From contig CAZUJF010000004.1 of assembly GCA_964619955.1 (NCBI GenBank), forward strand, positions 74,595 to 138,594: DNA of 64,000 nt, written 5' to 3'. The notes under the pieces are model-generated. The model made no database searches, had not been told where the DNA came from, and saw only the letters and a program-made list of their open reading frames with translations. Origin of the DNA: an uncultured Planctomycetales bacterium. GTDB lineage: Bacteria > Planctomycetota > MHYJ01 > JACPRB01. A program made the translations under genes and the position numbers. Shown here in pieces: positions 13,654 through 62,530 of the stretch. The stretch's first letter is position 1. Each line of letters begins with the position of its first letter.

Positions 13654-13663
13654 TCGATTCAGC

Positions 13664-31968: not shown

Positions 31969-33199
<1,231 letters not shown>

Positions 33200-33275
33200 G
33201 CCGCCCCGCCCTCCCGGTGATATACTTCCCGCAGCCGGCGTCCGCCCGGAGAGAGCGGGGCCCGGCGACGCGAAT

Positions 33276-34535
33276 ATGAGCCGGGTCCTCAACGATCTGC
33301 CCAGGCGCTTTCACGAGGCGCTGCACGCCGCCCTGGGGCCCGACCGCTACGCCCTCTGGGTGGAGCAGACGCGGCTCGTCTGCCTCGACGAGGAATGCTT
33401 CAGCTTCCAGGTCGCCAGCAGCGCCGCCCGGGACAAGCTGGAGCGCCTGCTGGCCGGGCCGGTGACGGAGGTCGCCCGGCAGGTCACCAACCGGAACATC
33501 CGGCTGCGGCTGGACGTCGAACCCGCCGCGTTTCCCCCGCCCGCGCCGGGCCCCGCCCTGCGGACGGCGCCGCACGCCTTCTCGAATTTCGTCCCCGGAC
33601 CCGGCAACCGCATGGCGCTGACGGCCGCCCGGACCTTCGCTCTGGGCGGCCCCCCGGCCCCCCGGCTCCTGCTGCTCTGCGCCCGCAGCGGGCTGGGCCG
33701 CAGCCACCTGCTCGGCGCCATCCACCACGCCCTGGGAGGCCCGAGGAGTCCCGGCGCGCTCCTCTTCAGCGGCGAGCAATTCCGCCGCTACGCGGAGGAG
33801 TCCGAGCGCCGCGGACGCCTGGACGCCTTCCTGCACAAATGCCGCGGCGCCTCGGTCTTCCTGCTCGACGACCTCCATCTGCTCGCCCGGCGCGAGACGG
33901 CCGGACTCGCGCTCGCCGAGGTGCTGGGCGCGATCCGGGACCGGGGCGCCCGCGCCGCCCTCGGCAGCGACCGGCATCCCCGCGCGATCGAGGGGCTCCC
34001 CCGCCTGCTCCGGGCGCGGCTCCGCGCCGACGTCGAGGCCTCGATCGACCGCCCGGACGCGGCCACGAGCGAAGGCGTGCTCCGCCGGGCGGCCCCGCCG
34101 GGAACGCCCCCCGCCGTGCTCGCCGCGATCGCGCGGGACGTGGGCTCCAGCCACGCCGACCAGCTGGACTGCCTCTCCCGGATCCTCGCCCGGCCCCCGG
34201 TGACGGAGGCCTCCGCGCGGGCGGGGATCGCGGACTTCCTCTCGGAATGGAGTTTCGGCCTCAGCTACGCGGACATCGTCCGCGCCGCCGCCGACCTCTT
34301 CGGCGTGCGCGCGACGGAGATCTACTCCCTGGACCGCTCGCGGGAGGCGGCGGAGGCCCGCCAGGCGTGTTTCTACCTCGCGCGGAAACTGCTGGGCCGG
34401 CCCTTCGCGCAGATCGGCGGGCATTTCGGCGGACGGGACCACTCCACGGTCCACGAGGCCTGCCGGAAGCTGGCCCGGGCCCGGGGGGAGCGCAAGGAGC
34501 GCCTGCGGCAGCTGGAGGCGCGCCTGCGCCCCTGA
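33276..34535 (+). CDS. DnaA-family protein with degenerate Walker A (divergent DnaA paralog)
   Basis: 'FSNFVPGPGNRMA' (DnaA box III region) and 'GRDHSTVHEA' (DnaA domain IV signature). The Walker A reads 'ARSGLGRSHLL' instead of G..GLGKTHLL, and the Walker B is 'VFLLDDLHLL'. Confidence 0.6.
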   Translation: MSRVLNDLPRRFHEALHAALGPDRYALWVEQTRLVCLDEECFSFQVASSAARDKLERLLAGPVTEVARQVTNRNIRLRLDVEPAAFPPPAPGPALRTAPHAFSNFVPGPGNRMALTAARTFALGGPPAPRLLLLCARSGLGRSHLLGAIHHALGGPRSPGALLFSGEQFRRYAEESERRGRLDAFLHKCRGASVFLLDDLHLLARRETAGLALAEVLGAIRDRGARAALGSDRHPRAIEGLPRLLRARLRADVEASIDRPDAATSEGVLRRAAPPGTPPAVLAAIARDVGSSHADQLDCLSRILARPPVTEASARAGIADFLSEWSFGLSYADIVRAAADLFGVRATEIYSLDRSREAAEARQACFYLARKLLGRPFAQIGGHFGGRDHSTVHEACRKLARARGERKERLRQLEARLRP

Positions 34536-34545
34536 ACCCCCGCGC

Positions 34546-35316
34546 CTATTTCTGGCCCACCCGCCACTTGTTCTCGAAAACCCAGCGGTAGTAGTCGCGC
34601 CGCTTGAGCTTCGACGCCGCCGCCTCGTCCAGGACGACGGTGGCGCGCGGGTGCAGTTGCAGCACGCTCGCGGGGACCTCCGCGGTGACGGGGCCCTCGA
34701 CCATCTCCCGGATCACGGACGCCTTGCCCTCCCCCGAGGCGAGCAGGAGCAGGTGCCGGGCCTCCATGATCGTGCCCACGCCGAGCGTGACGGCGAAGCG
34801 GGGGATCTCCGCGCCGGGAGTGGACATCTTCCGGTACTCCTCGATCGTGTCCGGTTCCAGCGTCTTCGGCCGCGTGCGCGATCCCAGCGAGGAGCCGGGT
34901 TCGTTGAAGCCGACGTGGCCGTTCCTGCCGATGCCGAGGATCTGCAGGTCGATGCCCCCCAGGGAGCGGATCCGCTCCTCCGTCTGCGCCGACAGCGCCT
35001 CGACGTCCGGGGCGTCGCCGCAGAGCAGGTGCACGTTCGCCGGGTCATGCCTCACATGCCGGAGCAGGTGATGGTGCAGGAAGCCGTTGAAGCTGTCCGG
35101 ATTCGACGGCGCCAGACCGATGAACTCGTCGAGATTGAAGAAGCGGACCTTCGCGAACGCCTCGGGGCGGCGCCGCAGGCGCTCGTAGAGCCCCACCGGG
35201 GTCTTCCCGGTCGCGAGCCCCAGGACCAGGGCGGGCTTGCGGTCCAGCTCCCCGGACACGATCAGCGCCGCGCGGTCGGCCAGGGCCGCCGCGTCGCGCT
35301 CAATGATGATTTCCAT
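34546..35316 (-). CDS. nagB: Glucosamine-6-phosphate deaminase
   Basis: 'LVLGLATGKTP' and 'NLDEF' motifs, about 256 aa. Confidence 0.85.
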   Translation of the reverse strand: MEIIIERDAAALADRAALIVSGELDRKPALVLGLATGKTPVGLYERLRRRPEAFAKVRFFNLDEFIGLAPSNPDSFNGFLHHHLLRHVRHDPANVHLLCGDAPDVEALSAQTEERIRSLGGIDLQILGIGRNGHVGFNEPGSSLGSRTRPKTLEPDTIEEYRKMSTPGAEIPRFAVTLGVGTIMEARHLLLLASGEGKASVIREMVEGPVTAEVPASVLQLHPRATVVLDEAAASKLKRRDYYRWVFENKWRVGQK

Positions 35317-36466
35317 GCAAGAGCTCGCCTCCCACGTACGCCATCTTCACTTCGAGACCCCGGCCGTACAGGACCACGTCGGCCCAGGCCCCCGGCTCCA
35401 GGCTCCCGACCTTCGACTCCATCCCCAGCAGCCGGGCGGGCGCCCGCGTCGCCATCGCCAGCGCGTCCTGCGGCGGCAGGCCCGTGTCCTCGGCGAGCCT
35501 CCGCACCCCCTCGAGCAGCGGCGTCGCGCTGCCCGCGAGCCGGCCGTTCGACTTCACGGTCACCCGACCGTTCTTGATCACGTAGTCCTCCCCGTCCGTG
35601 CGGAGCTCCCCGTCGGGCATCCCCATCGCGGCGACCGCGTCGCTGACAAGCACGATCTGCCCCGCCGGCTTCACCCGCAGCAGCAGCGCCGCGCAGCCCA
35701 CGCTGACATGGTCCCGGTCGTAGATGAGCCCGCAGGAGAGCCGGTCGATGACCAGCGCGGCGTTGAGGATGCTCTCCTCCCGGTGGTGCAGCGGCGACAT
35801 CGCGTTGAAGACGTGCGTGACGTGACGCAGGCCGCCCTCCAGGACGGCGCGGCTGATCTCCGCGGCGCTCGCCTCGGAGTGCCCGGCGCTCATGACGACG
35901 CCCCGCCGCACGCCGGCCTTGATGACGTCCAGGGCCCCGTCCAGTTCGGGCGCGAGCGTCATCTTCCGCAGCAGGCCCTTCGAGGCGCGGTGGTACTCGA
36001 GGAACTCCTTCACGGAGGGGCGGCGCAGATTCTTCAGCTGATGGGCCCCGTTGCGCTTCGGCGAGAGGAAGGGGCCTTCGAGATGGATGCCGAGGATGCG
36101 CGCCCCGCCCTTGAGCTTCGACGCGGCCACGATGCTCGCGATGCCGCGGAGCATGTCCCGCTTCGGCATCGAGAAGATCGTCGGAAGATAGGACGTCACG
36201 CCGACGGACAGCAGCCTGCGGCCGACCTCGAGGACCTGCTCCGGGCTCGTCTCGCTGAAGGAATGTCCGAAGCCGCCGTTGATCTGCGTGTCGATGAGGC
36301 CCGGGGCGGCGAGCAGGCCCCTGCCGGAGACGATCCGCGCGCCGCGTGCGGGGATGCGCGGCGCGACCCGGCGGATCCGCCCCCGCTCTATGAGGATGTC
36401 GCCCCGGTCGAGGACCTTGCCGCCGCTGATGACGGCGCAGCCGCTGATCAGGAGGGGTCCGGGCAT
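35300..36466 (-). CDS. nagA: N-acetylglucosamine-6-phosphate deacetylase
   Basis: Amidohydrolase fold with 'GLIDTQINGGFG' and 'HLEGPF' motifs. Overlaps nagB. Confidence 0.85.
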   Translation of the reverse strand: MPGPLLISGCAVISGGKVLDRGDILIERGRIRRVAPRIPARGARIVSGRGLLAAPGLIDTQINGGFGHSFSETSPEQVLEVGRRLLSVGVTSYLPTIFSMPKRDMLRGIASIVAASKLKGGARILGIHLEGPFLSPKRNGAHQLKNLRRPSVKEFLEYHRASKGLLRKMTLAPELDGALDVIKAGVRRGVVMSAGHSEASAAEISRAVLEGGLRHVTHVFNAMSPLHHREESILNAALVIDRLSCGLIYDRDHVSVGCAALLLRVKPAGQIVLVSDAVAAMGMPDGELRTDGEDYVIKNGRVTVKSNGRLAGSATPLLEGVRRLAEDTGLPPQDALAMATRAPARLLGMESKVGSLEPGAWADVVLYGRGLEVKMAYVGGELLHGNHH

Positions 36467-36514
36467 GGGTCGGAGGGTAACGCCCCTCCCCGGCCGCTGT
36501 CAATGGGCGGAGGG

Positions 36515-37381
36515 TCAAACCGCGAGCCGGGACGTCCCCGCGCGGAAATACCAGGGCAGCAGCCGCTTGAGGTGGGCCTCGGCGCCGAAGATCGCGCGCG
36601 CCTCCTCGCGTGCCTCCCGCCCCATGCGGTCCGCCTCGCCCGCCTCATTCCAGAGATAACGGACGTGGGAGACCAGGCTGGCGACGTCGCCGGGGGCGGA
36701 CAGGAACCCCGAGACGCCCTCCAGGACCAGTTCCTCCGCCAGGCCGATCCAGGGCGTGACCACGGCGCGCCCGGCCGCCGTTCCCTCCGCGATCCCGCGC
36801 GGCCACAACTCCCCGGCCGAGGAGAGGGACAGCACCAGGCGCGACTCGACCGCCTCCCCCGTCTCCCGCATCGGGATCTCGGGGAGGGCGCGGCGGACCG
36901 CATCGAACCAGCCCCGGGCCTCGCGATCCCCCTCCGCCACGAACACGCGCACGAAGCCGCCTTCCGAAGGCGCGGGGGTGTCGGCCGGCGCGATCTGCAG
37001 CGTGTAGGGCAGGCAGGCGCAGCGGCCCTCGGTCCGGGGGCCGGCCCCGTGCAGCCGTCCCAGCGCCGCCGGCGTGGGGGCGATGACCCAGTCGCTGCGG
37101 GAGCTGCGGTCCAGCGTCGAGTGGACCACCGGCACGCCCTGCCCGCCGAAGGCCTCGGCGAGCGCGGGGTCCGTTCCGATGACGTGGACGACGTCGGGCT
37201 CATGGGCGGCGAGCACTTTTTGCGCGAGCGCCGCGGCCGCGCCCCGGCGGTACCAGGGCGCGCTCCAGGTGCGCATCGGATGCACCATCACGGAGTATCC
37301 GGCCGCATGGAACGCGGACGCCAGGGCGCGCGGGCCGCCGGCGGGATGAACGCCCGGGGCGTCGACGATGAGTATCTTCAC
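36515..37381 (-). CDS. Glycosyltransferase family 1 (GT-B, GT4-like)
   Basis: C-terminal 'EG.SGFLS.PGD' GT1 signature. GTG start with RBS AGGAGAGGGG. Confidence 0.6.
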   Translation of the reverse strand: MKILIVDAPGVHPAGGPRALASAFHAAGYSVMVHPMRTWSAPWYRRGAAAALAQKVLAAHEPDVVHVIGTDPALAEAFGGQGVPVVHSTLDRSSRSDWVIAPTPAALGRLHGAGPRTEGRCACLPYTLQIAPADTPAPSEGGFVRVFVAEGDREARGWFDAVRRALPEIPMRETGEAVESRLVLSLSSAGELWPRGIAEGTAAGRAVVTPWIGLAEELVLEGVSGFLSAPGDVASLVSHVRYLWNEAGEADRMGREAREEARAIFGAEAHLKRLLPWYFRAGTSRLAV

Positions 37382-37409
37382 GATGGATCCCCTCTCCTTG
37401 CGCGATGAT

Positions 37410-37769
37410 TCAGGCGGACTGGGCCTGGGCGGGCGGGGCGCCCTCCCCGGGGGCGCCGGACAGCTCATGCCGGAGCGCGGACTGGATCTCGAAAAGCTCC
37501 CGGCGGAGTTTCTGCACGAGATCCACCTCGCGGGCGCGGCCCGCGTCCGTGAGGAAGTAGCGGTAGCTGCGGTTGGTGTCGCCGCTGACGTCCAGCAGTC
37601 CGCGGCCGACGAGGTCGTCGACGTAGGCGTTGATCATCGTCGCGCTGACGCCCGCCGCGCGGGCGAGCCCGCGCTGGCTGACGACGGACGAGCGGTTGAT
37701 CTCGCGGAGCACGGCGAGTTCGCGATAGTCCTTGCCGGGACGGAACATCTCGAAATGGATGCCGATCAT
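37410..37769 (-). CDS. Winged-helix transcriptional regulator (MarR/TrmB-like)
   Basis: Helix-turn-helix 'SQRGLARAAGVSATMINAYVDDLVGRGLL'. About 119 aa. Confidence 0.5.
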   Translation of the reverse strand: MIGIHFEMFRPGKDYRELAVLREINRSSVVSQRGLARAAGVSATMINAYVDDLVGRGLLDVSGDTNRSYRYFLTDAGRAREVDLVQKLRRELFEIQSALRHELSGAPGEGAPPAQAQSA

Positions 37770-37816
37770 CTTTCTTCCCCCCCTGAGTCGCCCGACGGCC
37801 CCGGCCGTCCATTAGG

Positions 37817-38344
37817 TTATCGAACGCGCGGAGGGGCGGTCTTTAGGGAAATGCGGCGGGCGGCGAGAATTAGATCACAAACTTCACGAACGGCCGCGTG
37901 GCCGCCGGGCCGGCGCGTGACCCAGTCGACGGCCCGCCGCACCTCGGGGACGGCGTCCGCGGGGGCGAAGGAGAGCCCCGCGGCGCCGAGCGGGCCCAGA
38001 TCGTTGAGATCGTCCCCCATGTACGCGCCGTCGCCGGCGTCGAGCTTGTGGCGCGCGAGCAGATCCCGGAACACGGCGGTCTTGTCCTCCACCCCGAGGT
38101 GGACCTCGCCGATTCGGAGCTTCTCCGCGCGGCGGATGACGATCTTCGAGTTCTCGCCGCTGATGAGGGCGAGCAGGAGCCCGGCCTCGCGGAGGCGGCG
38201 GAGTCCGAGCCCGTCCTTCACGTCGAAGCGCTTGAGGCCCTCCCCTTCCAAGCCGTAGTACATCCCGCCGTCGGTGAGCACGCCGTCGACGTCGAGCACG
38301 AGGGCGCGGAGGGCGCGGAGCCGGCGGGCGGAGGGCGCGCTCAT
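37817..38344 (-). CDS. HAD-IIIA phosphatase of the KdsC / sugar-acid 8(9)-phosphate phosphatase family
   Basis: 'LVLDVDGVLTDG' motif I and 'GDDLNDL' motif IV. The ATG overlaps the upstream stop (ATGA). Confidence 0.7.
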   Translation of the reverse strand: MSAPSARRLRALRALVLDVDGVLTDGGMYYGLEGEGLKRFDVKDGLGLRRLREAGLLLALISGENSKIVIRRAEKLRIGEVHLGVEDKTAVFRDLLARHKLDAGDGAYMGDDLNDLGPLGAAGLSFAPADAVPEVRRAVDWVTRRPGGHAAVREVCDLILAARRISLKTAPPRVR

Positions 38345-38973
38345 GACGCGGCGCCGGACATCAGCGCGATGTGCCGGCCGAGCGCGTCGAGGACGGCGCG
38401 CCACTGGGGCAGCTTGGGCTTGAGCTCCTCGTCGACGATCTCCGTGACGCGCGCCACGTCCTTGTACTCCAGGGCGGCGGAGAAGCGGAGGAGGACGTCC
38501 TGGAGTTCCCGGATGCGCATGTCGATGGTGGCGCCGCCGGCGTCGAGATTGCGGTAATCGGCGGACACCAGGCCCCCGACGTCCCGGACGGCGCGCAGCA
38601 GGATGTCCCAGGCGAAGAAGAGGGCCTCCGATTTGTCGAGGGAGCGGCCGTACTCCCCGCCGGTGACGGCCGCGATCACGTCGGCGTGGCCGCGATCCAT
38701 GTTCTTGAGGTGCCCGACCAGCCCGGCCAGGGTGCCGCTGGACATCTCGTAGGGATCGGCGGTGCGGACTTCGAGGAGGCTGAATTTCCCGGGGGCCTCG
38801 TCGGCATAGAGCCCCTGCCGTTCGGCGTTGAGGGCCTGGCCGTCGAGGGTGAATCCGATGATGACGCGGCGCCGGGAGGCGACGGTGCGCCTGAGCGACT
38901 CGAGGACGGCGCGCAGGCTGGTGCCCTCGTCGGGCACGCCCAGTCCCGTCTTGCCGTCGATGACGACTTCCAT
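38341..38973 (-). CDS. Hypothetical protein, paralog A of the maf-flanking pair
   Basis: Start 'MEVVIDGK', end '...ELKPKLPQWRAVLDALGRHIAL'. Collinear homology with the 40873..41484 product. Confidence 0.6.
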   Translation of the reverse strand: MEVVIDGKTGLGVPDEGTSLRAVLESLRRTVASRRRVIIGFTLDGQALNAERQGLYADEAPGKFSLLEVRTADPYEMSSGTLAGLVGHLKNMDRGHADVIAAVTGGEYGRSLDKSEALFFAWDILLRAVRDVGGLVSADYRNLDAGGATIDMRIRELQDVLLRFSAALEYKDVARVTEIVDEELKPKLPQWRAVLDALGRHIALMSGAAS

Positions 38974-38983
38974 CTCGACCTCG

Positions 38984-39012
38984 ACTATAGGGGCGCGCTC
39001 AGCGGGCGTCAA
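38984..39012 (-). promoter_or_regulatory. Consensus-like sigma-70 promoter (TTGACG-N17-TATAGT) immediately upstream of paralog A
   Basis: Minus strand reads TTGACGcccgctgagcgcgccccTATAGTcgaggtcgagATG. The -10 lies 10 nt before the ATG, so the leader is very short or absent. Confidence 0.5.
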
Positions 39013-40876
39013 CGTCCGATGCGGGATACTTCCCGAGCACCCGTTCGCGCAAGGGGACGAATTCCGAAAGGAAGAATTCGATGGCCGGCTTGAAGCCCCC
39101 GAACAGGGTCTCGTACTGCTGGATGGTCTTGCGGATACGGTCCGGATCAGCCTGTTTCAGGTCGTCGATCTCGCGGTCCAGGGTCCGTATGTCGAGGATC
39201 ATGGCCGAGACCTGCCGCTCGAGGATTTTCATGATTTCAGGGTCCCCGATGACCTTCTCCTGAAGCGACCTGAGCTTTCGGAAGTGCGACGGCATCTGTT
39301 CCCGGTCCAGCCGGTTGGAAGGATCCCGGCGGGCGACCTGTGCCGTCGTGCGGATGCCCTCCTCCGTCGCCTCCAGCATGTTCCTCAGGGCGGCAAGCAG
39401 GGCGGCCGTCCTACGGGCGAACGCCGGAAGGTCGACCTGCGGAGGGAGATCCGTCTGCGCGCGGATCAGATCGTCGAGCGGGAGTACCTTCGGGGCATAC
39501 CGATCGAGCGCCAGCGGAAGCGGCAGGTTTTCCGCCCCGCGGATCAACGCGCCGATCTCGCTCGTCTGGACGACCTTCGAAGGCGTCTTCGCGATCGCCG
39601 CCTCGAAGTGGACGATATAAGACGAGAAATTGGTGACCGTCCGGACGGGCTTCCCTTGCACGCCCGGCACCATCAACCATTTCTGAGTTTCCTGCCGGAG
39701 TTCCTTCCGGACGGAGTCCTGTACTCCTTCGGCGTGGGTGTGTTCCGACGGATAGCAGAGATCCACCCCGGTGAGGAGAATCGGGCCGGCTCCCGTCAGG
39801 CGGCTGAAGAAGAACGCGCTGTGGGCGACGCTGGTGCCTTTGTCCATGAACCCGAAATCACCCAGGAAGCTCCGGGACCACTCCTGAAGACCATGGGCCG
39901 TTTCGAACGTCGTCCGGCGCCCCTGAAAGGCGGACACGGTGCCGTGGTAGGCGTCCGGATCGTACAGCAGCACCGTGCGCTGCGGGATCAGGAAGCCCTG
40001 GAAGAACGTGGACGTGGCCTCCTTCATGTCCAGCGTGGCCACAAAGTGAGGATGAATGCCTTCCCGGACCAGAAGTCTCAGCGCCACGTCGGAGGCCACC
40101 AGGATTGCCCTATCCTGAGCGGCACGGAGATGCGGGATCGCCGCCGTCAGGGACGGTCCCGCACCGATCACGATGGCGGGGATCCCCTTGAACCGATCCC
40201 GGAAGCGGGAGGCAGGGCAGGAGACGGTCATGGCCTCGATGTTCCGGATGGCGTTCCGGTCCATGTCCTCGCTCTTCAGCAGGATCGTGGCCAGTTCCAC
40301 TTTCTGCCTCCGGACCGCGACGTCGACCTCGCCGGAAATCGCCTGGTAGAACTCCGGGAAGAACCTCAGGCAGGGGGGGTAGGACAGCAGATTGATCCGC
40401 AAGGCGCCCGAGCGCAGCAGGAATGACCGCAAAAAGGCCTGCGCGGCGACGGCTTCGCGACCCACCAGGAAAGCGATGTTGGCCCGAGCGAAGAGGGGCC
40501 CCAGATCCACGGATTCCAGGGCCGCGCGAAACAACCCTTCGTGGGCCTCGACGCACGCGATCCATCGCCGGGGCTCGGCTCGCCGGACCAGTTCGAGAGC
40601 GAGGTAGCCCAGCCCGATGCCGTTGAGCAGGTACGTGTCGTAGCCGGCGAGCGTGCGAGCGTCGAGAAACTGCGCGGCCTCCTGGATCGGATCGTATTCG
40701 GAATGAAGCCGGATCTCCTCGCCGTCATGGGCCAGCGCCTTCAGGGTGGGCGGACCCGAACGCGAGGCGGAGATCCGCAGGGAGGGGTCGGGCCATCGGA
40801 CGGCCCGCATTCGTTCGGCGAGGGGGGCATCCACCCGGGCCAGGCCTTCGAGGTTCCGATCGAAAAGCGTGCTCAT
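38999..40876 (-). CDS. Motility-accessory-factor (Maf)-like protein with MptE/DUF115 domain, putative flagellin sialic-acid-like glycosyltransferase
   Basis: 'IVIGAGPSL', 'LVASDVAL', 'HPHFVATLD' MptE-like core. About 625 aa from the Met at 40876 (ATGA overlap with the upstream gene). Sits next to the flagellin/pse genes. Confidence 0.65.
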   Translation of the reverse strand: MSTLFDRNLEGLARVDAPLAERMRAVRWPDPSLRISASRSGPPTLKALAHDGEEIRLHSEYDPIQEAAQFLDARTLAGYDTYLLNGIGLGYLALELVRRAEPRRWIACVEAHEGLFRAALESVDLGPLFARANIAFLVGREAVAAQAFLRSFLLRSGALRINLLSYPPCLRFFPEFYQAISGEVDVAVRRQKVELATILLKSEDMDRNAIRNIEAMTVSCPASRFRDRFKGIPAIVIGAGPSLTAAIPHLRAAQDRAILVASDVALRLLVREGIHPHFVATLDMKEATSTFFQGFLIPQRTVLLYDPDAYHGTVSAFQGRRTTFETAHGLQEWSRSFLGDFGFMDKGTSVAHSAFFFSRLTGAGPILLTGVDLCYPSEHTHAEGVQDSVRKELRQETQKWLMVPGVQGKPVRTVTNFSSYIVHFEAAIAKTPSKVVQTSEIGALIRGAENLPLPLALDRYAPKVLPLDDLIRAQTDLPPQVDLPAFARRTAALLAALRNMLEATEEGIRTTAQVARRDPSNRLDREQMPSHFRKLRSLQEKVIGDPEIMKILERQVSAMILDIRTLDREIDDLKQADPDRIRKTIQQYETLFGGFKPAIEFFLSEFVPLRERVLGKYPASDVDAR

Positions 40877-41484
40877 GCCCGGGTTTCGCCGAGGCGTCCG
40901 AGAGCCGCCAGAATCTGGCCCCACTCCGCAAGCTGCGGCTTCAATTCGTATTGCGCGAGGTCGCCCAGCTGAACGACATCGTTCTTCCGGAAAGCGTCCC
41001 GGAACCGCGTCAAGGACTCGACCACCTTGAGGATGAGCTCTTCCGCGGTACCGGCCGCACACGGAAGGGTCTTGAAATCCACCTGGAGGAGGCGACCGAG
41101 TTCCTGCATCGCCCCGGTCAGGAGCGCCCAGCCCCTGAAGCAGGCGTCGAAAGCCTTCAGGGCTCCGTCGTATTTCCCGGCGACCGTGAGGCTTCCCGCT
41201 TCATCATGACTTCGGCCGAGGCTCTCCAGATGGCGCTTGAGGTCGGCGATCATGCGGAGCGCGAAGGCTTTCGGCGTCGCGGTCAGGACGGCAAGCGCTC
41301 CAGGTGGAACGGAATCCCCGCCCCGTTCGGGAAGCAGTTCCACGGCCTTCCCTTCGACGCTCACGGAAACCAGCACCCGCTGCCGGGCTCCGCACCAGCC
41401 CCGCAGCTGCGCGAACAGATCCGAAATCGAGGGGTTCGAGGAGAGGCGAACCTCCTCCGGATTCCCGTCGATGGCGATGATCAT
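40873..41484 (-). CDS. Hypothetical protein, paralog B of the maf-flanking pair
   Basis: Start 'MIIAIDGN', end '...ELKPQLAEWGQILAALGRLGE'. Homologous to the 38341..38973 product. Confidence 0.6.
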   Translation of the reverse strand: MIIAIDGNPEEVRLSSNPSISDLFAQLRGWCGARQRVLVSVSVEGKAVELLPERGGDSVPPGALAVLTATPKAFALRMIADLKRHLESLGRSHDEAGSLTVAGKYDGALKAFDACFRGWALLTGAMQELGRLLQVDFKTLPCAAGTAEELILKVVESLTRFRDAFRKNDVVQLGDLAQYELKPQLAEWGQILAALGRLGETRA

Positions 41485-41492
41485 GGGCTTCG

Positions 41493-41521
41493 ACTATAGG
41501 CCCCTTCCCGAGGGGCGTCAA
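41493..41521 (-). promoter_or_regulatory. Consensus-like sigma-70 promoter (TTGACG-N17-TATAGT) immediately upstream of paralog B
   Basis: Minus strand reads TTGACGcccctcgggaaggggccTATAGTcgaagcccATG. The spacer contains the GCCCCT/AGGGGC hairpin that follows fliS. Confidence 0.5.
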
Positions 41522-41530
41522 TCCTCTCCC

Positions 41531-41986
41531 CTACCCCTCCAGGGCAAGGGGGGCCTCCCCGGCGGACACGGTCTGCACGGCCTCCTTGAGGGCGCGGAGC
41601 ATCGGAAAGCGCTCCTGCCGGTTCAGATCCATGGCTGCCGACCATGTATCCCGCAGATGAACGAGCACCTTCGACGCCTCTTCGGCAAGCTGCGGCTTGC
41701 GGTCGAGGTTGGCGCGGACCAGCCGGTTGTACACGAAGTCATAGAGGTCGGCGAGGGCCCGGTAGACCTCTCCGGGCATATCCTCCGGCTTGTGATAAGA
41801 CACCAACTCGAGGACGATCTTTTGAGCCCGGATCAGAAGGGCGCTGCAGGGCCCGAAGTCGTCGTCGCCGAATTTCGTCTTCGCCTGCTCGCAAAACCGT
41901 ATGGCCCCGTCGAAGAGCATGATGAACAGTTCCTCCGGGGTGGCGGTCCGAACCTTCGACTCCAGGTACTGGCGTGCGGGATTCAT
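41531..41986 (-). CDS. fliS: Flagellar export chaperone FliS
   Basis: 'YLESKVRTATPEELFIMLFDGAIRF' FliS signature. Confidence 0.9.
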   Translation of the reverse strand: MNPARQYLESKVRTATPEELFIMLFDGAIRFCEQAKTKFGDDDFGPCSALLIRAQKIVLELVSYHKPEDMPGEVYRALADLYDFVYNRLVRANLDRKPQLAEEASKVLVHLRDTWSAAMDLNRQERFPMLRALKEAVQTVSAGEAPLALEG

Positions 41987-42000
41987 GATGTCGTCCTCGA

Positions 42001-45000
42001 TTAGGTTCCCAAGATGCCCGACAGAAGCCCCTGAACGCGCTGCTGCGCGCTCTGCGATTGGGCGATGAGCCCCTCCAGGCGCGCAAAACGGAGGACCAGG
42101 TGGTCCGTCTGCCTTGCGAGACGCGCCTCGATCCGTTCCACCGACTCCTCCAAACGCTCAATCCCCTTCTGCAAGGTCTCCGAACGACGGGTGATCAACC
42201 CTTCGTCGCTCCGCGTGATGAAATCAAGCCGTTCATCCAGTCGCGCCGCGACGCCCGGATCGCCCCGGAGCAGCAGGAGATCCCCCCGGAGCACGTTCTC
42301 TCCTGCGGCGAGCGTCTTGGCGATCTTGAGTTCCGACGCCGCAGTGGAGCTGTTGAGATTCGTCACGCTCAGGGGATTCGTCTCGACCGGCGACGTATCC
42401 AAGAGCTCGACGGAGAAACCGTCGACGCCGATCCGCGCTTCGATCTTGCCGGAGTTCCCGGGGGCGCTGTTGATCGCGGACAACAAGGACCCCACCGTGC
42501 TGATGCCGGACAGGTCGATATCGAAAGCGGTCCCGTCCCGGGCCTTGATCCGGAAGTCGGCCCCGGGGACCTGGGAAACACCCCGTCCGTTGTTCAGATC
42601 GGCCAGGGGAGTGTCCACGCCGAGCTGGCGCTGCTTCAGGAAGAGCTGCTTGACGCCGTCGAAATCCGACGTCAGTTTCTCGTTGAATACCGAGGAATTG
42701 AAGTTCAGGGCGCCCTCCGCCGTCAGCGTCAGCCCGACCTCCGACATGGCATCGAGCTGGGAGACCGAGATCTCCCTGACGGGGTCGCTGATCAGTCCGC
42801 TCAGGTCCTGGGTGATCCTCCGGAGCACGCTCTCGCCGAACAGGATGCCCTTCTGGAAGGTCTCCGTGTTGAACGCGGTGAATTGCTTGATCTTGAGAAC
42901 GCTCTGGTTGAAGCTCTCCACGAAACGGCCCACCTGGTCCGTCACCGCCTGGGTGTCGCGGGACACGGTCACCGTCACGGGAGCGCCGCTCACCCCCCGC
43001 GCTTCCAGGACCAGGCCCGGTACCACGGTGTTGAAGACGTTGTCGGTGGAGGAGATCAGGGCGGGCTCGGTCGCCCCTTCCCCGGAACCGTACAGGAGCA
43101 GGGCGTCCTGGGCGGCCGCGCTCGCGGCGAACGTCAGTCCGGTGATGTCGGTGTCCACGAATACCCGGTTGGCCTTGCCCGTCTTGGAACTCGTGAGGCT
43201 CAGCCGATAGGGTGTCAATGGCGAACCATCGTTGATGATCGTGGCGCTTACGCCCACCTGGGCCCGGTTGAGCTGGTCCGCGATCTCCTGGAGCGTCGAA
43301 TTCGGATCGATCGCGACGGATTTCTCGAAACTGCCGTCGATTCGCCCCGGCGTGGCGCTTTTCGCCGTGCCCAGCAGATTCAGATCCCGTGCGGTCCGCC
43401 CGCCGTCGACCTCCTCCACTTTCAGGAGGCCGCCCCCGGCGCTGGCGTCGCTGAGCAGGATCCCGTCGCCGCCGTCGTTGATGCGGGCCAGAAACGAGGA
43501 GTTGCCGGCCGCCGCAGCCCCGGCGTTGATTTCCTGAACCACCCGGCCGAGGGTGTTGTCCCCCGTCTGGCTGAGATCCACGGTAAAGGCCCGGCCGACG
43601 GTGTCGGTGACCTTGAGTTTTCCCTTGGCGACCCCGAGGCCGCCGTTCAACTTCGTCAGCAGCGTGTTTTCCCCGAGAAAGCGGGGGTCGAGGTCCGACC
43701 CCTGAATGCGGTCGGAGGCCACGCTGGCGGCGATCCCGAGATCCGTCGCCGGGGCTCCCGACACGATCAGGTTCGACACCGAGACGCCGGTGGAGTCGTC
43801 CACCTTCAGACCGTTCCCCTGGGCGTTCAACGAGGCCTGCAGGCCGAGTCCCGCGGAGGCCGCCCCCCGGTTCAGGGTCCGGACGATGTCCGCGAGCGAC
43901 TCGTTCAAGGCGTGCACCGCATTCCCCGCGGTCGCCGTGCCCGACAGGTCCCGGTCGAAACCGACGGTCGCCCCGCTGATCTCCGTCACGGTGCGATACT
44001 CCGCTCCCGAGGAGGTCTGCACCCGGATCCGGTTCCCCACCGCAAACCCGTCCGCGGAACTCAAGGTCAGATGCTTGGCATCCACGACCGCCACGAGCGA
44101 GGCCTCCACCCGGGAGGACACATTGACGCTCGTCGATGCCCCCGAACGATCCGTCAGGCCGACGCTTCCCTCGGCGACCCCCTTGAGATCCGCCGCGACA
44201 CTCGATCCTCCGTTGATCAAGCCTCTCTGGAGGCTGTTGAGAGTCGGGAGCAGCGAGCGGCCCACCAGACGGCTCCCACTCAGCGCATCGGCGACGCCCG
44301 TCGACGCGTTCTCCGCGGCCACCTGCACGAACGACCCGCCGGAGCCGCCGCCCAGTCCGAGATCGGCGGCGGCAAAACTGTCCGTCGCGCTGCCGACGCT
44401 CAGGGCCTGCACACCCGCCGTATCGGAGAGTACCAGAGCATTCCCGGCAGTGGACAGGGAGGCGCTCAGGCTGGACCCAGCCGAAAGGGCTCGCGCATTG
44501 ATCAGGTCGACGACCCCCTGGAGGGTCGTCACCGTGGAGGCGAGGTCCACGGAAACCGCCGTGCCGTCCGTGTCGGTGATCGTGAAATCAACGGCCACGT
44601 CGCTGTTCCGGCGGACGCCCTGCCCCCCGTTCAGCGAGTCCAGGGTGTTCGAGGCTTTCAAGGTCAGGATGTCCGATCCGAAGACGAACTGGCTCGACCC
44701 CAGCACCACCCCGCTGCCGGCGATGCCCAGGGAACTGGCCGTCCGGTCCGCGCCGGCGTTTTCGATGCGGAACGTCCCGGCACCCCCCGCCAGATCCTCG
44801 ACGACGAGCCGGTTTCCCTGCACGGAGGCGCGGACGGACACCGAGGGCGCGGCGTTCAGGGCCTCCACGATCTCGGCGACATCGGTGACCCCTCGAAGGT
44901 CGACGGTCCCGCTCCGGCCCGCGGAATCCGTGATCTTGAGCGCTCCCCGGTCGAAGCCGGTCTGTCCGTTGAGGTACGCCACGTCGGTGGCCGGATCCAG

Positions 45001-45414
45001 TCCGGTGCCGCCGATCTGCACCCGCACGGTGCCGGCGGCGGTCGCCACGTTGCTCGCGTTCGCGTCGACGAAACCGTTGGAGAGCAACTGGGACGCCTGG
45101 GCCAGCCGCTTGGGCGTGAAACTGTAGCTGCCCGGCACGGCCACGGAGGATCCGGTGGCTCCGAGAACCGCCTCGTTGCTGGAGGCGGCCTTCGTGGACG
45201 CATAGATCCGCGGGCTTGAGAGGAGGCTCGTCGTGCTCTTCAAGGAAAGGAGCTGGACGTTGAGTTCCAGCAACGCCGTCTTGCGGGCGGTCTCCACCTC
45301 GATCTTGGCCTTGTACTGGTCGGCCGGCCGGCGCTGGACGGCGAGCATCTTCTCGATGATCGACGCGAAGTCGATCCCCGAGATCAGGCCATCCACGCGA
45401 ATCGGTCCGACCAT
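42001..45414 (-). CDS. fliD: Flagellar filament cap protein FliD (unusually large, 1137 aa)
   Basis: N-terminal 'GLISGIDFASIIEKMLAVQRRP...' and C-terminal coiled-coil FliD domains. Very long Ser/Thr/Gly-rich central region. Confidence 0.85.
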   Translation of the reverse strand: MVGPIRVDGLISGIDFASIIEKMLAVQRRPADQYKAKIEVETARKTALLELNVQLLSLKSTTSLLSSPRIYASTKAASSNEAVLGATGSSVAVPGSYSFTPKRLAQASQLLSNGFVDANASNVATAAGTVRVQIGGTGLDPATDVAYLNGQTGFDRGALKITDSAGRSGTVDLRGVTDVAEIVEALNAAPSVSVRASVQGNRLVVEDLAGGAGTFRIENAGADRTASSLGIAGSGVVLGSSQFVFGSDILTLKASNTLDSLNGGQGVRRNSDVAVDFTITDTDGTAVSVDLASTVTTLQGVVDLINARALSAGSSLSASLSTAGNALVLSDTAGVQALSVGSATDSFAAADLGLGGGSGGSFVQVAAENASTGVADALSGSRLVGRSLLPTLNSLQRGLINGGSSVAADLKGVAEGSVGLTDRSGASTSVNVSSRVEASLVAVVDAKHLTLSSADGFAVGNRIRVQTSSGAEYRTVTEISGATVGFDRDLSGTATAGNAVHALNESLADIVRTLNRGAASAGLGLQASLNAQGNGLKVDDSTGVSVSNLIVSGAPATDLGIAASVASDRIQGSDLDPRFLGENTLLTKLNGGLGVAKGKLKVTDTVGRAFTVDLSQTGDNTLGRVVQEINAGAAAAGNSSFLARINDGGDGILLSDASAGGGLLKVEEVDGGRTARDLNLLGTAKSATPGRIDGSFEKSVAIDPNSTLQEIADQLNRAQVGVSATIINDGSPLTPYRLSLTSSKTGKANRVFVDTDITGLTFAASAAAQDALLLYGSGEGATEPALISSTDNVFNTVVPGLVLEARGVSGAPVTVTVSRDTQAVTDQVGRFVESFNQSVLKIKQFTAFNTETFQKGILFGESVLRRITQDLSGLISDPVREISVSQLDAMSEVGLTLTAEGALNFNSSVFNEKLTSDFDGVKQLFLKQRQLGVDTPLADLNNGRGVSQVPGADFRIKARDGTAFDIDLSGISTVGSLLSAINSAPGNSGKIEARIGVDGFSVELLDTSPVETNPLSVTNLNSSTAASELKIAKTLAAGENVLRGDLLLLRGDPGVAARLDERLDFITRSDEGLITRRSETLQKGIERLEESVERIEARLARQTDHLVLRFARLEGLIAQSQSAQQRVQGLLSGILGT

Positions 45415-45430
45415 GCCGCTTCCCCCGAAC

Positions 45431-45841
45431 TCAGACTTCCTGATCCAGAATGACCCCCATCACATCGTGAAGCTTCCGGTGCAGTTCCAGCACTTCCTTG
45501 GCCGGCACCATCTTGACGACGTCGTTGGTCCGGCGGTCGATCACCTTCGCGTAGAACTCCTCGGTGCCCTCATAGACGTCGAACGCCAGGCGGTGTCCCA
45601 ATTCCTTGGCCACCCGGTTGAGCCGCTCGACCATCTTCTCGAGCCCCTCCTTGTCGCCTTCCTCGGGCTTCTCCGCCTCTTCTGCGGCCTCGACCGGCTT
45701 GACGGGGTCCTTGAGGACCCGGACATCCGCCTCTTCGGGAGGCGGGACGTCGGAAGGGAGAGGACGCTCACGCACTGGAGCCTTGTAGGGAGACAGCGAA
45801 AGCGGCTCCGGTCCGGGAGCAGATGAAAGATTCCCGATCAT
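45431..45841 (-). CDS. flaG: FlaG family protein
   Basis: C-terminal 'AFDVYEGTEEFYAKVIDRRTNDVVKMVPAKEVLEL' FlaG motif. Confidence 0.8.
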   Translation of the reverse strand: MIGNLSSAPGPEPLSLSPYKAPVRERPLPSDVPPPEEADVRVLKDPVKPVEAAEEAEKPEEGDKEGLEKMVERLNRVAKELGHRLAFDVYEGTEEFYAKVIDRRTNDVVKMVPAKEVLELHRKLHDVMGVILDQEV

Positions 45842-45906
45842 GACCCTACCCCACCCAACACACTCTTATCGGTCCGAACCATCTTCCCTCTGAAGACCCC
45901 CCGAAG

Positions 45907-45936
45907 GGGCCGCCCCGCATCCATGCAGGGCGGCCC
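45907..45936 (-). terminator. Strong hairpin downstream of the flagellin gene (attenuator/terminator-like) with UGGA apical loop
   Basis: Minus strand: GGGCCGCCC-uGCA-UGGA-UGCg-GGGCGGCCC. No long U-tract follows, so partial read-through into flaG-fliD-fliS is plausible. Confidence 0.45.
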
Positions 45937-45954
45937 CCGGGGTGGATTGCCGGA

Positions 45955-47655
45955 TTAGCCGAGCAGCTGGAGGACGGCCTGCGGGATCGCCCGCGAGGAC
46001 GCCAACGCCGCGATGCCCGACTGGAAGAGAATCTGGTTCCGCGCGAAACTGGCGGTCTCTTCCGCGAAGTCGAGGTCACGCAGGCTCGACAGCGAGGCCT
46101 GCAGGTTTTCGCTCACGACATCGATCGACTCGATGTTCGGCTCGAGGTTGAAGGCCGAAACGGCCCCCAGGAAGCCGCGCATCTGGGAGACCTGGTCGCC
46201 GGCCGCCTGAATGATCTTCAGGGCGTTCGCGGCGTTCTGGGTCAGGTCGTTGCCCTGACCCGTGCGAAGGGTGTTCAGGAAGCCGCCCATGTTCACCGCG
46301 CCCGAGGCGCCGCCGCTCGTGAACAGGCTGCCGCTGGTGGAGTCCGCATTGGCGAACTCGGCGTCCTTCAACGCTTCCGAGAGGACGTCGCGGAGGCTCT
46401 CGAAGCCGAGAGACGCGGTGCCGACGCTCCTGATGCCGAGCGAGAGCCGGTCCGTGACCGACGCCTGCTCCCGGAGCTGGAAGTCCAGACCGGTCCGGCC
46501 GACCTTGATCTGGATGCCGCTGCTGTAGGACGACACGGCCGAGGCCACCTCGTCGACGGCGGTGAGGCCGAAGGGGTGGTAGAGATCCGCGTTCACGTCG
46601 AAGGTGAAGCTCGCATTGGCCGTGTTGATGTTGAAATGCAAGCCCTTGCCGGTATACACGGAACCGTCGAACTTCATCTGGCCGTCGAGGCCCCGGTCGG
46701 AAACGAGCGAGCTGGAGGCCACGTGCTGGTAGAAGTCGGTGATGGATTGCGCCGAGAAGCCGGCCACACCGCCGCTGTAGACCAGCTTGCTCACATCAGT
46801 GACCGTCAGGCCGTTGTTCACCGCCTGGGCCGAGATGAACTGATCATTGCCGAAACCTTCGGATTGGAGCCTGACGTCCGCACCGTCCTGCGTTGCGAAG
46901 ACGCCCGTCCGGTCCGCCACGCCGTTGACCGCTTTGGCGATGCCCGAAGCCGTCTCCCCGGAAGCCAGGACGATGTCGGCCGTGCCCAGGGCGCCCGTGA
47001 TGCGGATCGTGGACGTCTGACCGCTGCCGATCGCGTTGGAGGCGACGGCACCGGCGAGGAGGAGTTCGGCCCGCTGCGCCGAACGCTCGAACTGGAGGGT
47101 CAGCGTGCGCTCCGTGTCGGCACCCGCGAAGTTCATGCTGCGGATGTTCACGTTGCGGAAAGCCTGATAGGTGGCGCCGTTGTTGTCCTCGGCCAGCGAA
47201 CCGCTGGTGCCGGTGACCTTGTAGCCGGCGCTGCCGTTCAGGAGCGCCCGGCCGGCGAAGCGCGTGGTGTTGGCGATGCGGTCGATCGCGTCCAGGGCCT
47301 GGTCGACCGAATCCTGCTCGGCCGCCACCTGCTCGGGACTGTTGGAGCCGCTGCTCATCGCGAACTGCAGCGAGTCCTGGATCGACGTGAGGAGGTCGCC
47401 GACCTTGGCCAGGGCGTTGTCCGCCGTGGACACGAGGTTCAGCGCGCTCTGGGAGTTCTCGGAGTTCTGCTTCAGGGCCGAGATCTGCTGGCGCAGCTGT
47501 TCGCTGATGACCAAGCCGGAGGGGTCGTCCGCGCCGCGGTTGATGCGCAGGCCGGACGAGAGACGCTCCAGGGTCTTGGATTGGGCGCGATCGGTCATCT
47601 GCAGGTTACGAATCGAGTTGACCGCCGCCGTGTTGGTGTTGATACGCAGAGCCAT
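45955..47655 (-). CDS. fliC: Flagellin
   Basis: Conserved N-terminus 'MALRINTNTAAVNSIRNL...LSSGLRINRGADDPSG' and C-terminus 'ASFARNQILFQSGIAALA'. 566 aa with a large variable centre. Confidence 0.95.
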   Translation of the reverse strand: MALRINTNTAAVNSIRNLQMTDRAQSKTLERLSSGLRINRGADDPSGLVISEQLRQQISALKQNSENSQSALNLVSTADNALAKVGDLLTSIQDSLQFAMSSGSNSPEQVAAEQDSVDQALDAIDRIANTTRFAGRALLNGSAGYKVTGTSGSLAEDNNGATYQAFRNVNIRSMNFAGADTERTLTLQFERSAQRAELLLAGAVASNAIGSGQTSTIRITGALGTADIVLASGETASGIAKAVNGVADRTGVFATQDGADVRLQSEGFGNDQFISAQAVNNGLTVTDVSKLVYSGGVAGFSAQSITDFYQHVASSSLVSDRGLDGQMKFDGSVYTGKGLHFNINTANASFTFDVNADLYHPFGLTAVDEVASAVSSYSSGIQIKVGRTGLDFQLREQASVTDRLSLGIRSVGTASLGFESLRDVLSEALKDAEFANADSTSGSLFTSGGASGAVNMGGFLNTLRTGQGNDLTQNAANALKIIQAAGDQVSQMRGFLGAVSAFNLEPNIESIDVVSENLQASLSSLRDLDFAEETASFARNQILFQSGIAALASSRAIPQAVLQLLG

Positions 47656-47666
47656 TGTTCAATCCT

Positions 47667-47697
47667 CCATGACTTCGGTCCTCGGCCATCCATGGCC
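47667..47697 (-). promoter_or_regulatory. CsrA-type binding sites in the flagellin 5' UTR (hairpin GGCCA-UGGA-UGGCC plus GGA over the SD)
   Basis: The mRNA reads ...gcGGCCAUGGAUGGCCgaggaccgaagucAUGGAGGAuugaacaAUG. One GGA sits in a hairpin loop and one overlaps the SD. csrA and fliW are encoded 1 kb upstream. Confidence 0.5.
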
Positions 47698-48021
47698 GCG
47701 ACCCTAATTACCTCCGGCCGTCCCGTACGGCGGTTCGACCGGCGTCGTTGGCTTGATTCCGCGCTATTTCAAGCGCGCGATCAACCCGTCATGCCACCTC
47801 CCAGCCGTCCACAGGCCCCACCCCGGCGGCTCTCGGAGGCCGCCCACTCCAGACCCGCCCACGCAGGCCCCAGAATTCATGGGGTGAGGGATAGCAAGAC
47901 CGGGGCCATGGCTGTTCCCCAGCTGAACAGAGTCGGGAGGAGCGCTTCCGACAGGAATGTGCCGACAATTTTGTAAGCCGGGGGACGAGCTTGTCGTGGG
48001 TTCCTTTTTGCAGGAACCGCC

Positions 48022-59974: not shown

Positions 59975-60021
59975 GATTCCTCCCTTGAGTCCCGAACCTT
60001 AACACGAGCCGGAAAGCGCCG

Positions 60022-62527: not shown

Positions 62528-62530
62528 CGT

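Follow-up and report, generated by a model that had tools for sequence, protein, structure and literature searches.

Two DUF8042 paralogs beside a Maf-type flagellin glycosyltransferase gene: a candidate Maf partner and a possible adaptor for a neighbouring sugar operon

The 64-kb stretch of Planctomycetales DNA analysed here (hereafter, the window) contains an island for flagellin glycosylation that includes Pse-type genes. In it, two genes for small proteins, paralog B and paralog A, lie on either side of a maf gene, all of them on the minus strand together with the neighbours listed in Table 1. Besides its MptE-like match, the maf product weakly matches Maf_flag10_N and, again weakly, the NCBIfam PseD domain (E 1.6e-16). 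The gene for A begins 22 nt past the maf stop codon and is followed by genes for a KdsC-type phosphatase, a MarR-type regulator and a glycosyltransferase. Since relatives of the latter measure 283-287 aa, its real start probably lies ∼80 nt downstream of position 37468.

Table 1. Genes and sequence features around paralogs A and B (window coordinates).
Feature	Position	Strand	Description
Paralog B	40873..41484	minus	203 aa; DUF8042; Maf-linked orthologous group; candidate Maf partner or adaptor
maf	38999..40876	minus	625 aa; Maf-type flagellin nonulosonic-acid glycosyltransferase; Pfam MptE-like, E 5.7e-32
Paralog A	38341..38973	minus	210 aa; DUF8042; KdsC-linked orthologous group
KdsC-subfamily HAD phosphatase (Kdo-8-P / KDN-9-P phosphatase type)	37817..38344	minus	TIGR01670, 154 bits (cut-off 107)
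MarR-type winged-helix regulator, A operon	37410..37769	minus	Pfam HTH_24/MarR; NCBIfam MarR_EPS below cut-off; conserved synteny
GT1/GT4-type glycosyltransferase, A operon	36515..37468	minus	Pfam Glycos_transf_1; conserved synteny
fliS	41531..41986	minus	Pfam FliS, E 8e-28; upstream of B; closes flagellin-flaG-fliD-fliS block
B promoter	41493..41521	minus	sigma-70-type TTGACG-N17-TATAGT, 8 nt before ATG
A promoter	38984..39012	minus	sigma-70-type TTGACG-N17-TATAGT, 10 nt before ATG
B stop / maf start ATGA overlap	40873..40876	minus	read from sequence; putative translational coupling
A stop / KdsC-type phosphatase start ATGA overlap	38341..38344	minus	read from sequence; putative translational coupling

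The original prediction had described A and B as collinear homologues bracketing maf, and both the gene order and a BLASTP comparison bear this out (29% identity over 202 aligned positions, E 8e-26, collinear end to end), with the N-termini (MEVVIDG and MIIAIDG) and the C-termini (ELKPKLPQWRAVLDAL and ELKPQLAEWGQILAAL) falling inside the alignment. B-type and A-type profiles separate two orthologous groups, and the two proteins are ancient duplicates. The earlier statement that no family could be named for them no longer holds, as both can be assigned to the large, uncharacterised Pfam family DUF8042/TP0873_N: a protein 100% identical to B (P0109) carries PF26154 at E <= 1e-5 in precomputed Pfam annotation, relatives of A at 82-83% identity carry PF26154 (DUF8042) as well as PF27299 (TP0873_N), and PF26154 is also present in the A-type copies of two further lineages (L062 and the P0125 locus). 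A deep profile search returned 2055 family representatives at 50% identity, the best 150 of which are nearly all 197-225 aa long and align end to end; A and B match the family in length (∼205 aa) and in two-domain architecture. In a literature search, we found no paper mentioning DUF8042 or TP0873 and no published function.

According to the AlphaFold2 model (pLDDT 93), an N-terminal ubiquitin-like beta-grasp domain (residues 1-72 in A numbering) is followed by a helical bundle (74-206) of ∼130 aa and four to five helices. The former has a beta-beta-alpha-beta-(beta)-alpha-beta topology and structural matches to ubiquitin, UBX or MoaD domains, while the matches of the latter are all generic, with designed bundles scoring highest; structure comparison of the model returned no specific solved relative. 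As modelled, both would be typical protein-binding modules. Across the A/B family, we found no conserved catalytic constellation and no Cys, His or acid cluster suggesting catalysis; most invariant residues are either hydrophobic or structural. This speaks against A and B being small enzymes in nonulosonic-acid biosynthesis or modification. Nor does a carrier role fit well, e.g. that of a ThiS/MoaD-like protein serving KdsC and the Pse-type genes, since the beta-grasp domain is internal rather than C-terminal and so leaves no free Gly-Gly tail. Besides, to our knowledge the known Pse, Leg and Kdn pathways require no A/B-like protein, and we regard an enzyme or carrier function as very unlikely.

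B is tied to Maf by gene order. B-type genes are always found immediately ahead of maf, in nine divergent lineages (the window, L004, L009, L032, L053, L008, L061, L062 and the P0125 locus), and this adjacency persists at identities to B as low as 24-38% and over a GC range of 44 to 71%. The 4-nt ATGA overlap between B and maf is shared by L004, L009, L062 and the P0125 locus, and the full B-Maf-A-KdsC layout recurs in five lineages (the window, L004, L032, L062 and the P0125 locus). In addition, two tandem 750-aa Mafs of the Firmicute Paenibacillus cellulosilyticus carry a DUF8042 helical domain at positions 8-128, followed by the Maf_flag10_N and MptE-like domains (hmmsearch 42.3 bits; hhalign probability 96%, E 3.9e-9, 118 columns). 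This fusion was seen in one genome, as two tandem paralogs of which the second is a weak match (15 bits), and the fused domain is detected by the B-type profile and not by the A-type profile. The window Maf is ∼125 aa shorter than its Paenibacillus counterparts and shows neither a TPR match nor an N-terminal DUF8042-like domain when searched with Pfam and the family profile.

Alternatively, the adjacency could be historical, DUF8042 being a general-purpose protein whose linkage to Maf and KdsC reflects a frozen gene order without direct partnership. Indeed, the family is very large, its distant members (L057-L059) are stand-alone genes with ordinary Shine-Dalgarno leaders that sit beside unrelated genes in non-flagellar contexts, and DUF8042 as a whole is not specific for Maf. 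However, a gene order that holds across the above range of identity and GC content, complete with stop-start overlaps, together with an independent domain fusion to Maf, makes mere historical linkage improbable. We think equally little of A and B as FliS/FliT/FlgN-type export or flagellin chaperones that hold flagellin before or after its glycosylation. The chaperone pair suggested earlier finds no echo in the profile comparison (hhalign probability of 1% for the DUF8042 family profile against a FliS alignment), A and B have no Pfam match to FliS, FliT or FlgN and carry an extra beta-grasp domain relative to these proteins, and a bona fide fliS is already present at the locus, from which A orthologs usually lie apart. 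Moreover, the fusion partner is Maf rather than flagellin, and the partners by coupling are likewise enzymes.

The situation differs for A. A-type genes are always found directly upstream of a KdsC-type phosphatase-MarR-GT1 operon (∼40 loci), and they are far commoner than B-Maf pairs. Because most of these loci show no adjoining maf, A may not act on Maf at all; its conserved partner is the KdsC-type phosphatase-MarR-GT1 operon instead. The proposed co-occurrence of the family with maf is seen for the B type, in the nine lineages named above, while the A type travels with this operon.

Both genes are preceded by promoter-like elements placed almost on the start codon. The exact sequence TTGACG-N17-TATAGT occurs twice in the window, once at A and once at B (a shuffled-sequence control gave 0.52 matches even with two mismatches allowed), and an independent sigma-70 scan of positions 34000..48000 picked up these two sites only. 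Each agrees with the consensus at 10/12 positions, and the A promoter overlaps the 3′ end of maf, whose stop codon (38999..39001) sits inside the spacer. The two sites had been taken for the same module; hexamers and 17-nt spacing are indeed exact at both, but the spacer sequences differ. The distance of 8-10 nt between the -10 element and the ATG stands, with 8 nt for B and 10 nt for A. Among orthologs, 41 of 44 distinct upstream regions retain TTGnnn-N16-18-TAnnnT placed 6-10 nt before the start (modal distance, 8-9 nt), over a GC range of 44 to 71%; the layout precedes B-type genes in L004, L009, L032, L053, L008, L061 and L062 and is likewise conserved in front of A-type genes. The two hexamers of a lineage-diverse subset hold 1.8 and 1.5 bits per position as compared with ∼0.4 in the spacer and flanks, six hexamer positions being fixed by the search pattern. 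Given the retention of the layout in 41 of 44 regions, the near-consensus sigma-70 promoters of the original prediction look real and under selection. Their description as a promoter cloned along with the gene, on the other hand, has to be given up: the layout is ancestral to the whole Maf/KdsC-linked clade and is also present at unrelated genes of the window, so that it is a retained feature rather than a recent copy. Together with the Maf/KdsC linkage and the Maf fusion, this putative leaderless promoter layout sets the sub-clade apart from DUF8042 at large.

Most orthologs have no Shine-Dalgarno sequence, and the B mRNA is expected to be leaderless or nearly so. The ATG of A is preceded, at 5 nt, by a GAGG; A may thus also be translated from a read-through transcript and need not be leaderless. 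Actinobacteria and Deinococcus commonly have leaderless mRNAs in which only a few nucleotides separate the -10 element from the start codon, and the TAnnnT at 6-10 nt before the ATG or GTG in the present clade resembles this arrangement. Here, however, a full consensus -35 element and a 17-nt spacer are conserved as well, with one gene family and across very different GC contents, in a layout read from the sequence. Constitutive sigma-70 promoters would suit regulators, and A and B do head their respective operons; one could accordingly picture them as anti-sigma proteins, anti-activators or connector-like proteins built on a helical bundle, which would adjust the expression or activity of flagellar and glycosylation genes. 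Yet the structural matches of the bundle are generic, no DNA-binding or sigma-binding motif was found in A or B, and fusion to the Maf enzyme as well as ATGA coupling to enzymes typify subunits rather than transcription regulators, which renders such a role unlikely.

Bipartite flagellin glycosyltransferases are exemplified by Maf-1 with its C-terminal TPR domain and FlmG with its N-terminal TPR domain. Like these, the Paenibacillus Mafs hold the helical domain and the transferase in one polypeptide, whereas their extra module is not a TPR domain, is located at the N-terminus of the Maf core and corresponds to a separate protein in the window. Why many Maf enzymes fail to glycosylate flagellin unaided was explained recently, for Maf-2 only, by Unay, Kint and Viollier (bioRxiv 10.1101/2023.12.03.569772): in the tripartite GlfM-Maf-2 flagellin glycosyltransferase system of Shewanella oneidensis, the TPR-less Maf-2 requires the cis-encoded helical-bundle protein GlfM (SO_3260) to bind flagellin. 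GlfM is an 89-aa four-helix bundle with conserved residues F24, R25, D77 and E80, is usually encoded downstream of maf-2, has an experimentally demonstrated function and is proposed to interconvert between separate and fused forms (bioRxiv 10.1101/2023.12.03.569772). The gene for B resembles that for GlfM in encoding a small soluble helical-bundle protein and in adjoining, within a locus for flagella and nonulosonic acids, the gene of a TPR-less Maf; in addition, the C-terminal helices hold a conserved acidic residue (D172/D178/E183 here, D77/E80 in GlfM), and the fused form proposed there is seen here in Paenibacillus. The two nevertheless differ in several respects. A and B comprise 203-210 aa and combine an extra beta-grasp domain with a ∼130-aa five-helix bundle, whereas GlfM consists of its four-helix bundle only, and B is encoded upstream of maf and overlaps its start. 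While the role of GlfM is experimental, B is known here from genes, and the likeness is one of context and predicted fold, with GlfM taken by its description. The Maf adaptor role is, as it appears, so far known for GlfM only, a different protein.

Because the window Maf is short, has no TPR match and has no GlfM-sized ORF nearby, it can be expected to need a partner, and the upstream copy B most likely serves this enzyme as a detachable subunit or adaptor. In our preferred reading, to which we assign a probability of roughly 55%, B partners Maf in the manner of GlfM, and its paralog A is an adaptor for the sugar operon next to it. Specifically, B would assist the TPR-less Maf, whose gene follows immediately, without being catalytic itself, and its helical bundle would dock on the N-terminal side of Maf, where the Paenibacillus enzyme has that domain covalently attached. 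There, it would help Maf to engage or select the flagellin acceptor, as GlfM does for the Maf-2 of Shewanella. The sigma-70-type promoter would place the 5′ end of the transcript at or a few nucleotides from the start codon of B, and maf translation would be coupled to termination on B via the ATGA overlap, so that both proteins might be made in matched amounts. A heads a separate, similarly built unit, with its own promoter, a putative leaderless start and ATGA coupling to the KdsC-type sugar-phosphate phosphatase, followed by MarR and GT1, and would probably act as an adaptor or regulatory subunit for an enzyme of this operon, or else as a second specificity factor for Maf. In a more far-reaching and clearly speculative version, which we hold to be doubtful, the DUF8042 proteins of this clade would be detachable glycosyltransferase adaptors of a second class with a structure of its own, whose bundle plugs into Maf while recognition of the acceptor, or of another enzyme, falls to the ubiquitin-like domain. 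The two ancient paralogs would then divide the work, B targeting Maf to flagellin and A coupling the KdsC/GT1 sugar-supply operon to it, with the deeply conserved leaderless start and termination-reinitiation fixing the adaptor-to-enzyme stoichiometry independently of the flagellar sigma cascade.

If the preferred reading is true, a large uncharacterised Pfam family would acquire a testable function, and the rule that a TPR-less Maf needs a cis-encoded helical-bundle partner would reach another phylum and another protein architecture. Planctomycetota and Paenibacillus would provide a natural split/fused pair for working out how a sialyltransferase-like enzyme is equipped with acceptor specificity, and reconstitution of flagellin sialylation or glyco-engineering with these Mafs would be expected to need co-expression of the DUF8042 partner. 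Besides, a promoter on the start codon combined with ATGA coupling could serve as a clean case for leaderless translation studies outside Actinobacteria. The same promoter layout was also observed at two further genes of the window, at 13625 on the plus strand and at 36503 on the minus strand.

The proteins encoded on either side of the maf gene, A and B, align from end to end (29% identity, E 8e-26), which bears out their original description as collinear paralogs. The accompanying statement that no nameable family matches them did not hold, as both fall in a large DUF8042/TP0873_N family that is already catalogued, yet uncharacterised. A word-indexed search with A returned 108 homologs, mostly hypothetical proteins of Planctomycetota, many of them with precomputed matches to PF26154 (DUF8042) and PF27299 (TP0873_N); with B, it returned B itself and a single relative of 67% identity. 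When searched without a word index, a 24-sequence family profile collected 2055 cluster representatives at E ≤ 1e-3, of which 893 also pass E ≤ 1e-10, and almost all of the best 150 of the 2055 are 197-225 aa long. A further search with a broad family alignment mostly recovered the A family again, a genome scan with one alignment (A1) gave three loci only, and tblastn of A on plasmid records gave no match. Neither protein matched anything in an NCBIfam scan or in a scan of a Pfam copy without PF26154 and PF27299, and we found no paper mentioning DUF8042 or TP0873. Profiles built separately for the A and B types tell two orthologous groups apart. Besides, we considered a metagenomic member (P0162, 345 aa; source label TPR protein) as a TPR fusion and rejected this, since its sequence consists of one beta-grasp domain followed by two helical domains.

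In the window, both genes belong to a minus-strand run that reads flagellin, flaG, fliD, fliS, B, maf, A, KdsC-type phosphatase, MarR, GT1, NagA and NagB (see table), with fliW, flgL, flgK, flgI, flgH and flgG/F farther upstream on the same strand. The pseudaminic-acid-type genes include a KdsB/PseF-like cytidylyltransferase gene, a Pse-associated methylase (TIGR03587, 175 bits vs an NCBIfam cut-off of 112) and a PseG-like gene that scores below the NCBIfam cut-off; the annotated parts of the window showed no NeuB/PseI-type synthase. Together with the flagellar genes, these define the setting as a flagellar locus carrying a nonulosonic-acid glycosylation island. ATGA overlaps join the B stop to the maf start and the A stop to the KdsC start, so that each paralog leads a coupled pair of cistrons. 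The annotations of close protein relatives assign them to Planctomycetota metagenome-assembled genomes. FliD is unusually long, and relatives keep this length (1137-1220 aa). The fliS-B-maf stretch (38999..41986) has the lower GC content (63-66%, GC3 0.77-0.84) compared with A and the KdsC gene (37800..38973; 70-72%, GC3 0.86-0.93), a contrast that might stem from differences in history or expression level between the halves.

Features of the flagellar locus and promoters placed on start codons
Feature	Coordinates	Strand	Remarks
Flagellin	45955..47655	-	head of flagellin-flaG-fliD-fliS run
fliD, 1137 aa	42001..45414	-	between flaG and fliS
fliS	41531..41986	-	adjoins B on upstream side
B, 203 aa	40873..41484	-	directly upstream of maf
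Maf, 625 aa	38999..40876	-	Pfam MptE-like, E 5.7e-32
A, 210 aa	38341..38973	-	between maf and KdsC-type phosphatase gene
KdsC-type HAD phosphatase	37817..38344	-	directly downstream of A
Pseudaminic-acid-type genes	58608..62530	-	far end of flagellar cluster, past flgG/F
DnaA-like gene (Bac_DnaA + Bac_DnaA_C)	32970..34535	+	convergent to NagB
Promoter of FHA-GAF-AAA+-HTH sigma-54 activator (gene 13664..15520)	13625..13666	+	TTGACG-N17-TATAAT-N10-ATG
NagA promoter	36466..36503	-	TTGACA-N17-TACCCT-N7-ATG

The genomic context in relatives was compared by tblastn of the window proteins on 56 fetched loci and from called-gene tables. The original prediction had tied the pair to maf, and for the B type this co-occurrence was borne out: a B-type gene lies directly upstream of Maf in the window and in eight further loci (L004, L008, L009, L032, L053, L061, L062 and the locus of protein P0125), with 24-67% identity to B and a GC content of 44-71%. 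The A type, found in ∼40 loci, is directly followed by the KdsC-type phosphatase and then by MarR and GT1, often continuing into NagA and NagB; in most of these loci, the available sequence shows no Maf adjoining the operon. Five loci (the window, L004, L032, L062 and the P0125 locus) have the full B-Maf-A-KdsC layout, indicating that the duplication is old and that both copies were retained. In the AT-rich locus L008, a single copy heads the series DUF8042-Maf-KdsC-methyltransferase-NeuB. Three more distantly related members (L057, L058 and L059, with L059 belonging to a Phycisphaerae genome) stand alone among unrelated genes; the link to Maf and KdsC is a property of a sub-clade, not of all DUF8042 proteins. 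That these neighbourhoods reflect a frozen gene order devoid of any partnership appears improbable to us. The DnaA-like neighbour of NagB is retained in L001 and L004.

A fused form of the family was found when the window Maf was searched against plasmid records, where it matched a 2.7-Mb replicon of Paenibacillus cellulosilyticus that encodes Mafs of 755 and 750 aa in tandem. Over their first ∼130 residues, they align with positions 79-199 of the family profile, its helical-bundle half (hmmsearch 42.3 bits in one copy and 15.0 bits in the other; hhalign probability 96%, E 3.9e-9, 118 columns), the alignment pairing GDVIKYEWIPLL of the Paenibacillus Maf with aDlleyElaPll of the family, and the Pfam domains Maf_flag10_N and MptE-like come after this extension. 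The window Maf is ∼125 aa shorter and is not matched by the family profile. The B-type profile finds the fused domain, whereas the A-type profile misses it, and the fusion order, bundle then Maf, is the gene order of B and maf. The fused Mafs are immediately preceded by a 108-aa ORF (L060 2863..3189) that weakly resembles FliT (E 0.15) and might encode a GlfM- or FliT-type factor.

GlfM is the closest known system. In Shewanella, Maf-1 binds flagellin via its own TPR domain, while the TPR-less Maf-2 requires GlfM, which binds Maf-2 and permits a ternary complex with flagellin; glfM usually lies downstream of maf-2, GlfM orthologs are functional in Gram-positive systems as well, and the authors discuss interconversion of split and fused forms (Unay, Kint and Viollier, bioRxiv 10.1101/2023.12.03.569772). 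A later preprint annotated maf2-glfM in Vibrio. In line with this logic, B is a helical-bundle protein, encoded in cis and coupled to a TPR-less Maf, with a fused form elsewhere; it differs in its size, its extra beta-grasp domain and the gene order. By analogy, we propose that B may work like GlfM, but do not file it as a member of the GlfM family. In our preferred reading, to which we assign a probability of roughly 0.55, B would be a partner or adaptor of Maf, the two being made in matched amounts from a leaderless, translationally coupled transcript, and A, the sister paralog of B, would do the equivalent job for the KdsC-MarR-GT1 operon or be an additional specificity factor of Maf. This explanation is weakest for A, which has KdsC rather than Maf as its conserved neighbour. 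While cis-encoded Maf accessories are already known, B would represent a variant type from a catalogued but uncharacterised family.

The AlphaFold2 model built with the family alignment (pLDDT 93, pTM 0.80) comprises a beta-beta-alpha-beta-alpha-beta unit (residues 1-72) and five helices in bundle packing (residues 74-206). The last two helices carry the family hallmark, D-x-V-x-L-x-D-x-L-x-Y-E-L-x-P-x(4)-W. A PDB profile search returned designed bundles and a weak ThiS match, nothing else, and conserved positions are for the most part structural; that A and B are biosynthetic enzymes or carrier proteins strikes us as very improbable. The original interpretation, a flagellin-modification accessory or chaperone pair, is supported in part only, although the paralogs and promoters flanking Maf were confirmed: hhalign of the family profile against a FliS alignment gave 1% probability, which speaks against FliS homology and makes FliS-like chaperones a rather improbable alternative to a Maf partner.

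The two genes had been described as driven by a near-consensus sigma-70 promoter cloned along with them. The 64 kb window indeed has exactly two copies of TTGACG-N17-TATAGT, one before A and one before B (shuffles: 0.52 matches even at two mismatches), and a sigma-70 scan of 34000..48000 found these sites only. Of 44 distinct orthologous genes compared upstream of the start codon, 41 have TTGnnn-N16-18-TAnnnT ending 6-10 nt before it, for which we roughly estimate a chance of <1e-3 in a random GC-rich upstream region. TTGACG serves as the -35 in 34 of these regions, and 36 have a spacer of 17 nt; 19 regions have 8 nt between the -10 and the start codon, 13 have 9 nt and 6 have 10 nt. The layout is also kept in L061, L062 and the AT-rich L008 (TTGCCA-N17-TATACT-N8-GTG) and L053 (TTGACA-N17-TAATAT-N8-ATG). 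Across 13 lineage-diverse regions, the hexamers reach 1.8 and 1.5 bits per position vs ∼0.4 in spacer and flanks; as the search pattern itself dictates six hexamer positions, it is the unconstrained ACG of the -35 that provides fair evidence. Such conservation argues for real-looking, selected promoters that are ancestral to the clade and not a recent copy. In most orthologs, the 8-9 nt ahead of the start codon contain no Shine-Dalgarno sequence; the window A has GAGG in front of its start, and the distant stand-alone members are preceded by ordinary Shine-Dalgarno leaders. From these sequence features, we infer that A and B would be transcribed leaderless. Two unrelated window genes share the layout, 7-10 nt before the ATG (see table), and leaderless starts may be common in the source organism. 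That A and B act as regulators seems unlikely to us.

Wherever compared, the maf stop codon lies inside the A promoter, at varying positions: in the spacer in the window (38999..39001), as the TGA of TTGACG in L004 (12353..12355) and as the TAG of TATAGT in L062 (9511..9513). The maf 3' end and the A promoter are hence co-constrained. The DUF8042 gene is preceded by a divergent Tricorn_N/PD40-repeat gene in L001 (9930-10000) and in the majority of A-type loci (L010-L056), and the region between the two genes contains a conserved TTATCGGCAA, whose reverse complement, GCCGATAA, resembles a sigma-28 -10 element. We rejected such an element for the window, where GCCGATAA does not occur; in relatives, it is tied to the divergent gene, which is missing here. 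In these relatives, the sigma-70 spacer contains a conserved CCTGAAGG that could serve as the -35 element of a sigma-28 promoter, in which case the sigma-28 and sigma-70 promoters would stand back-to-back.
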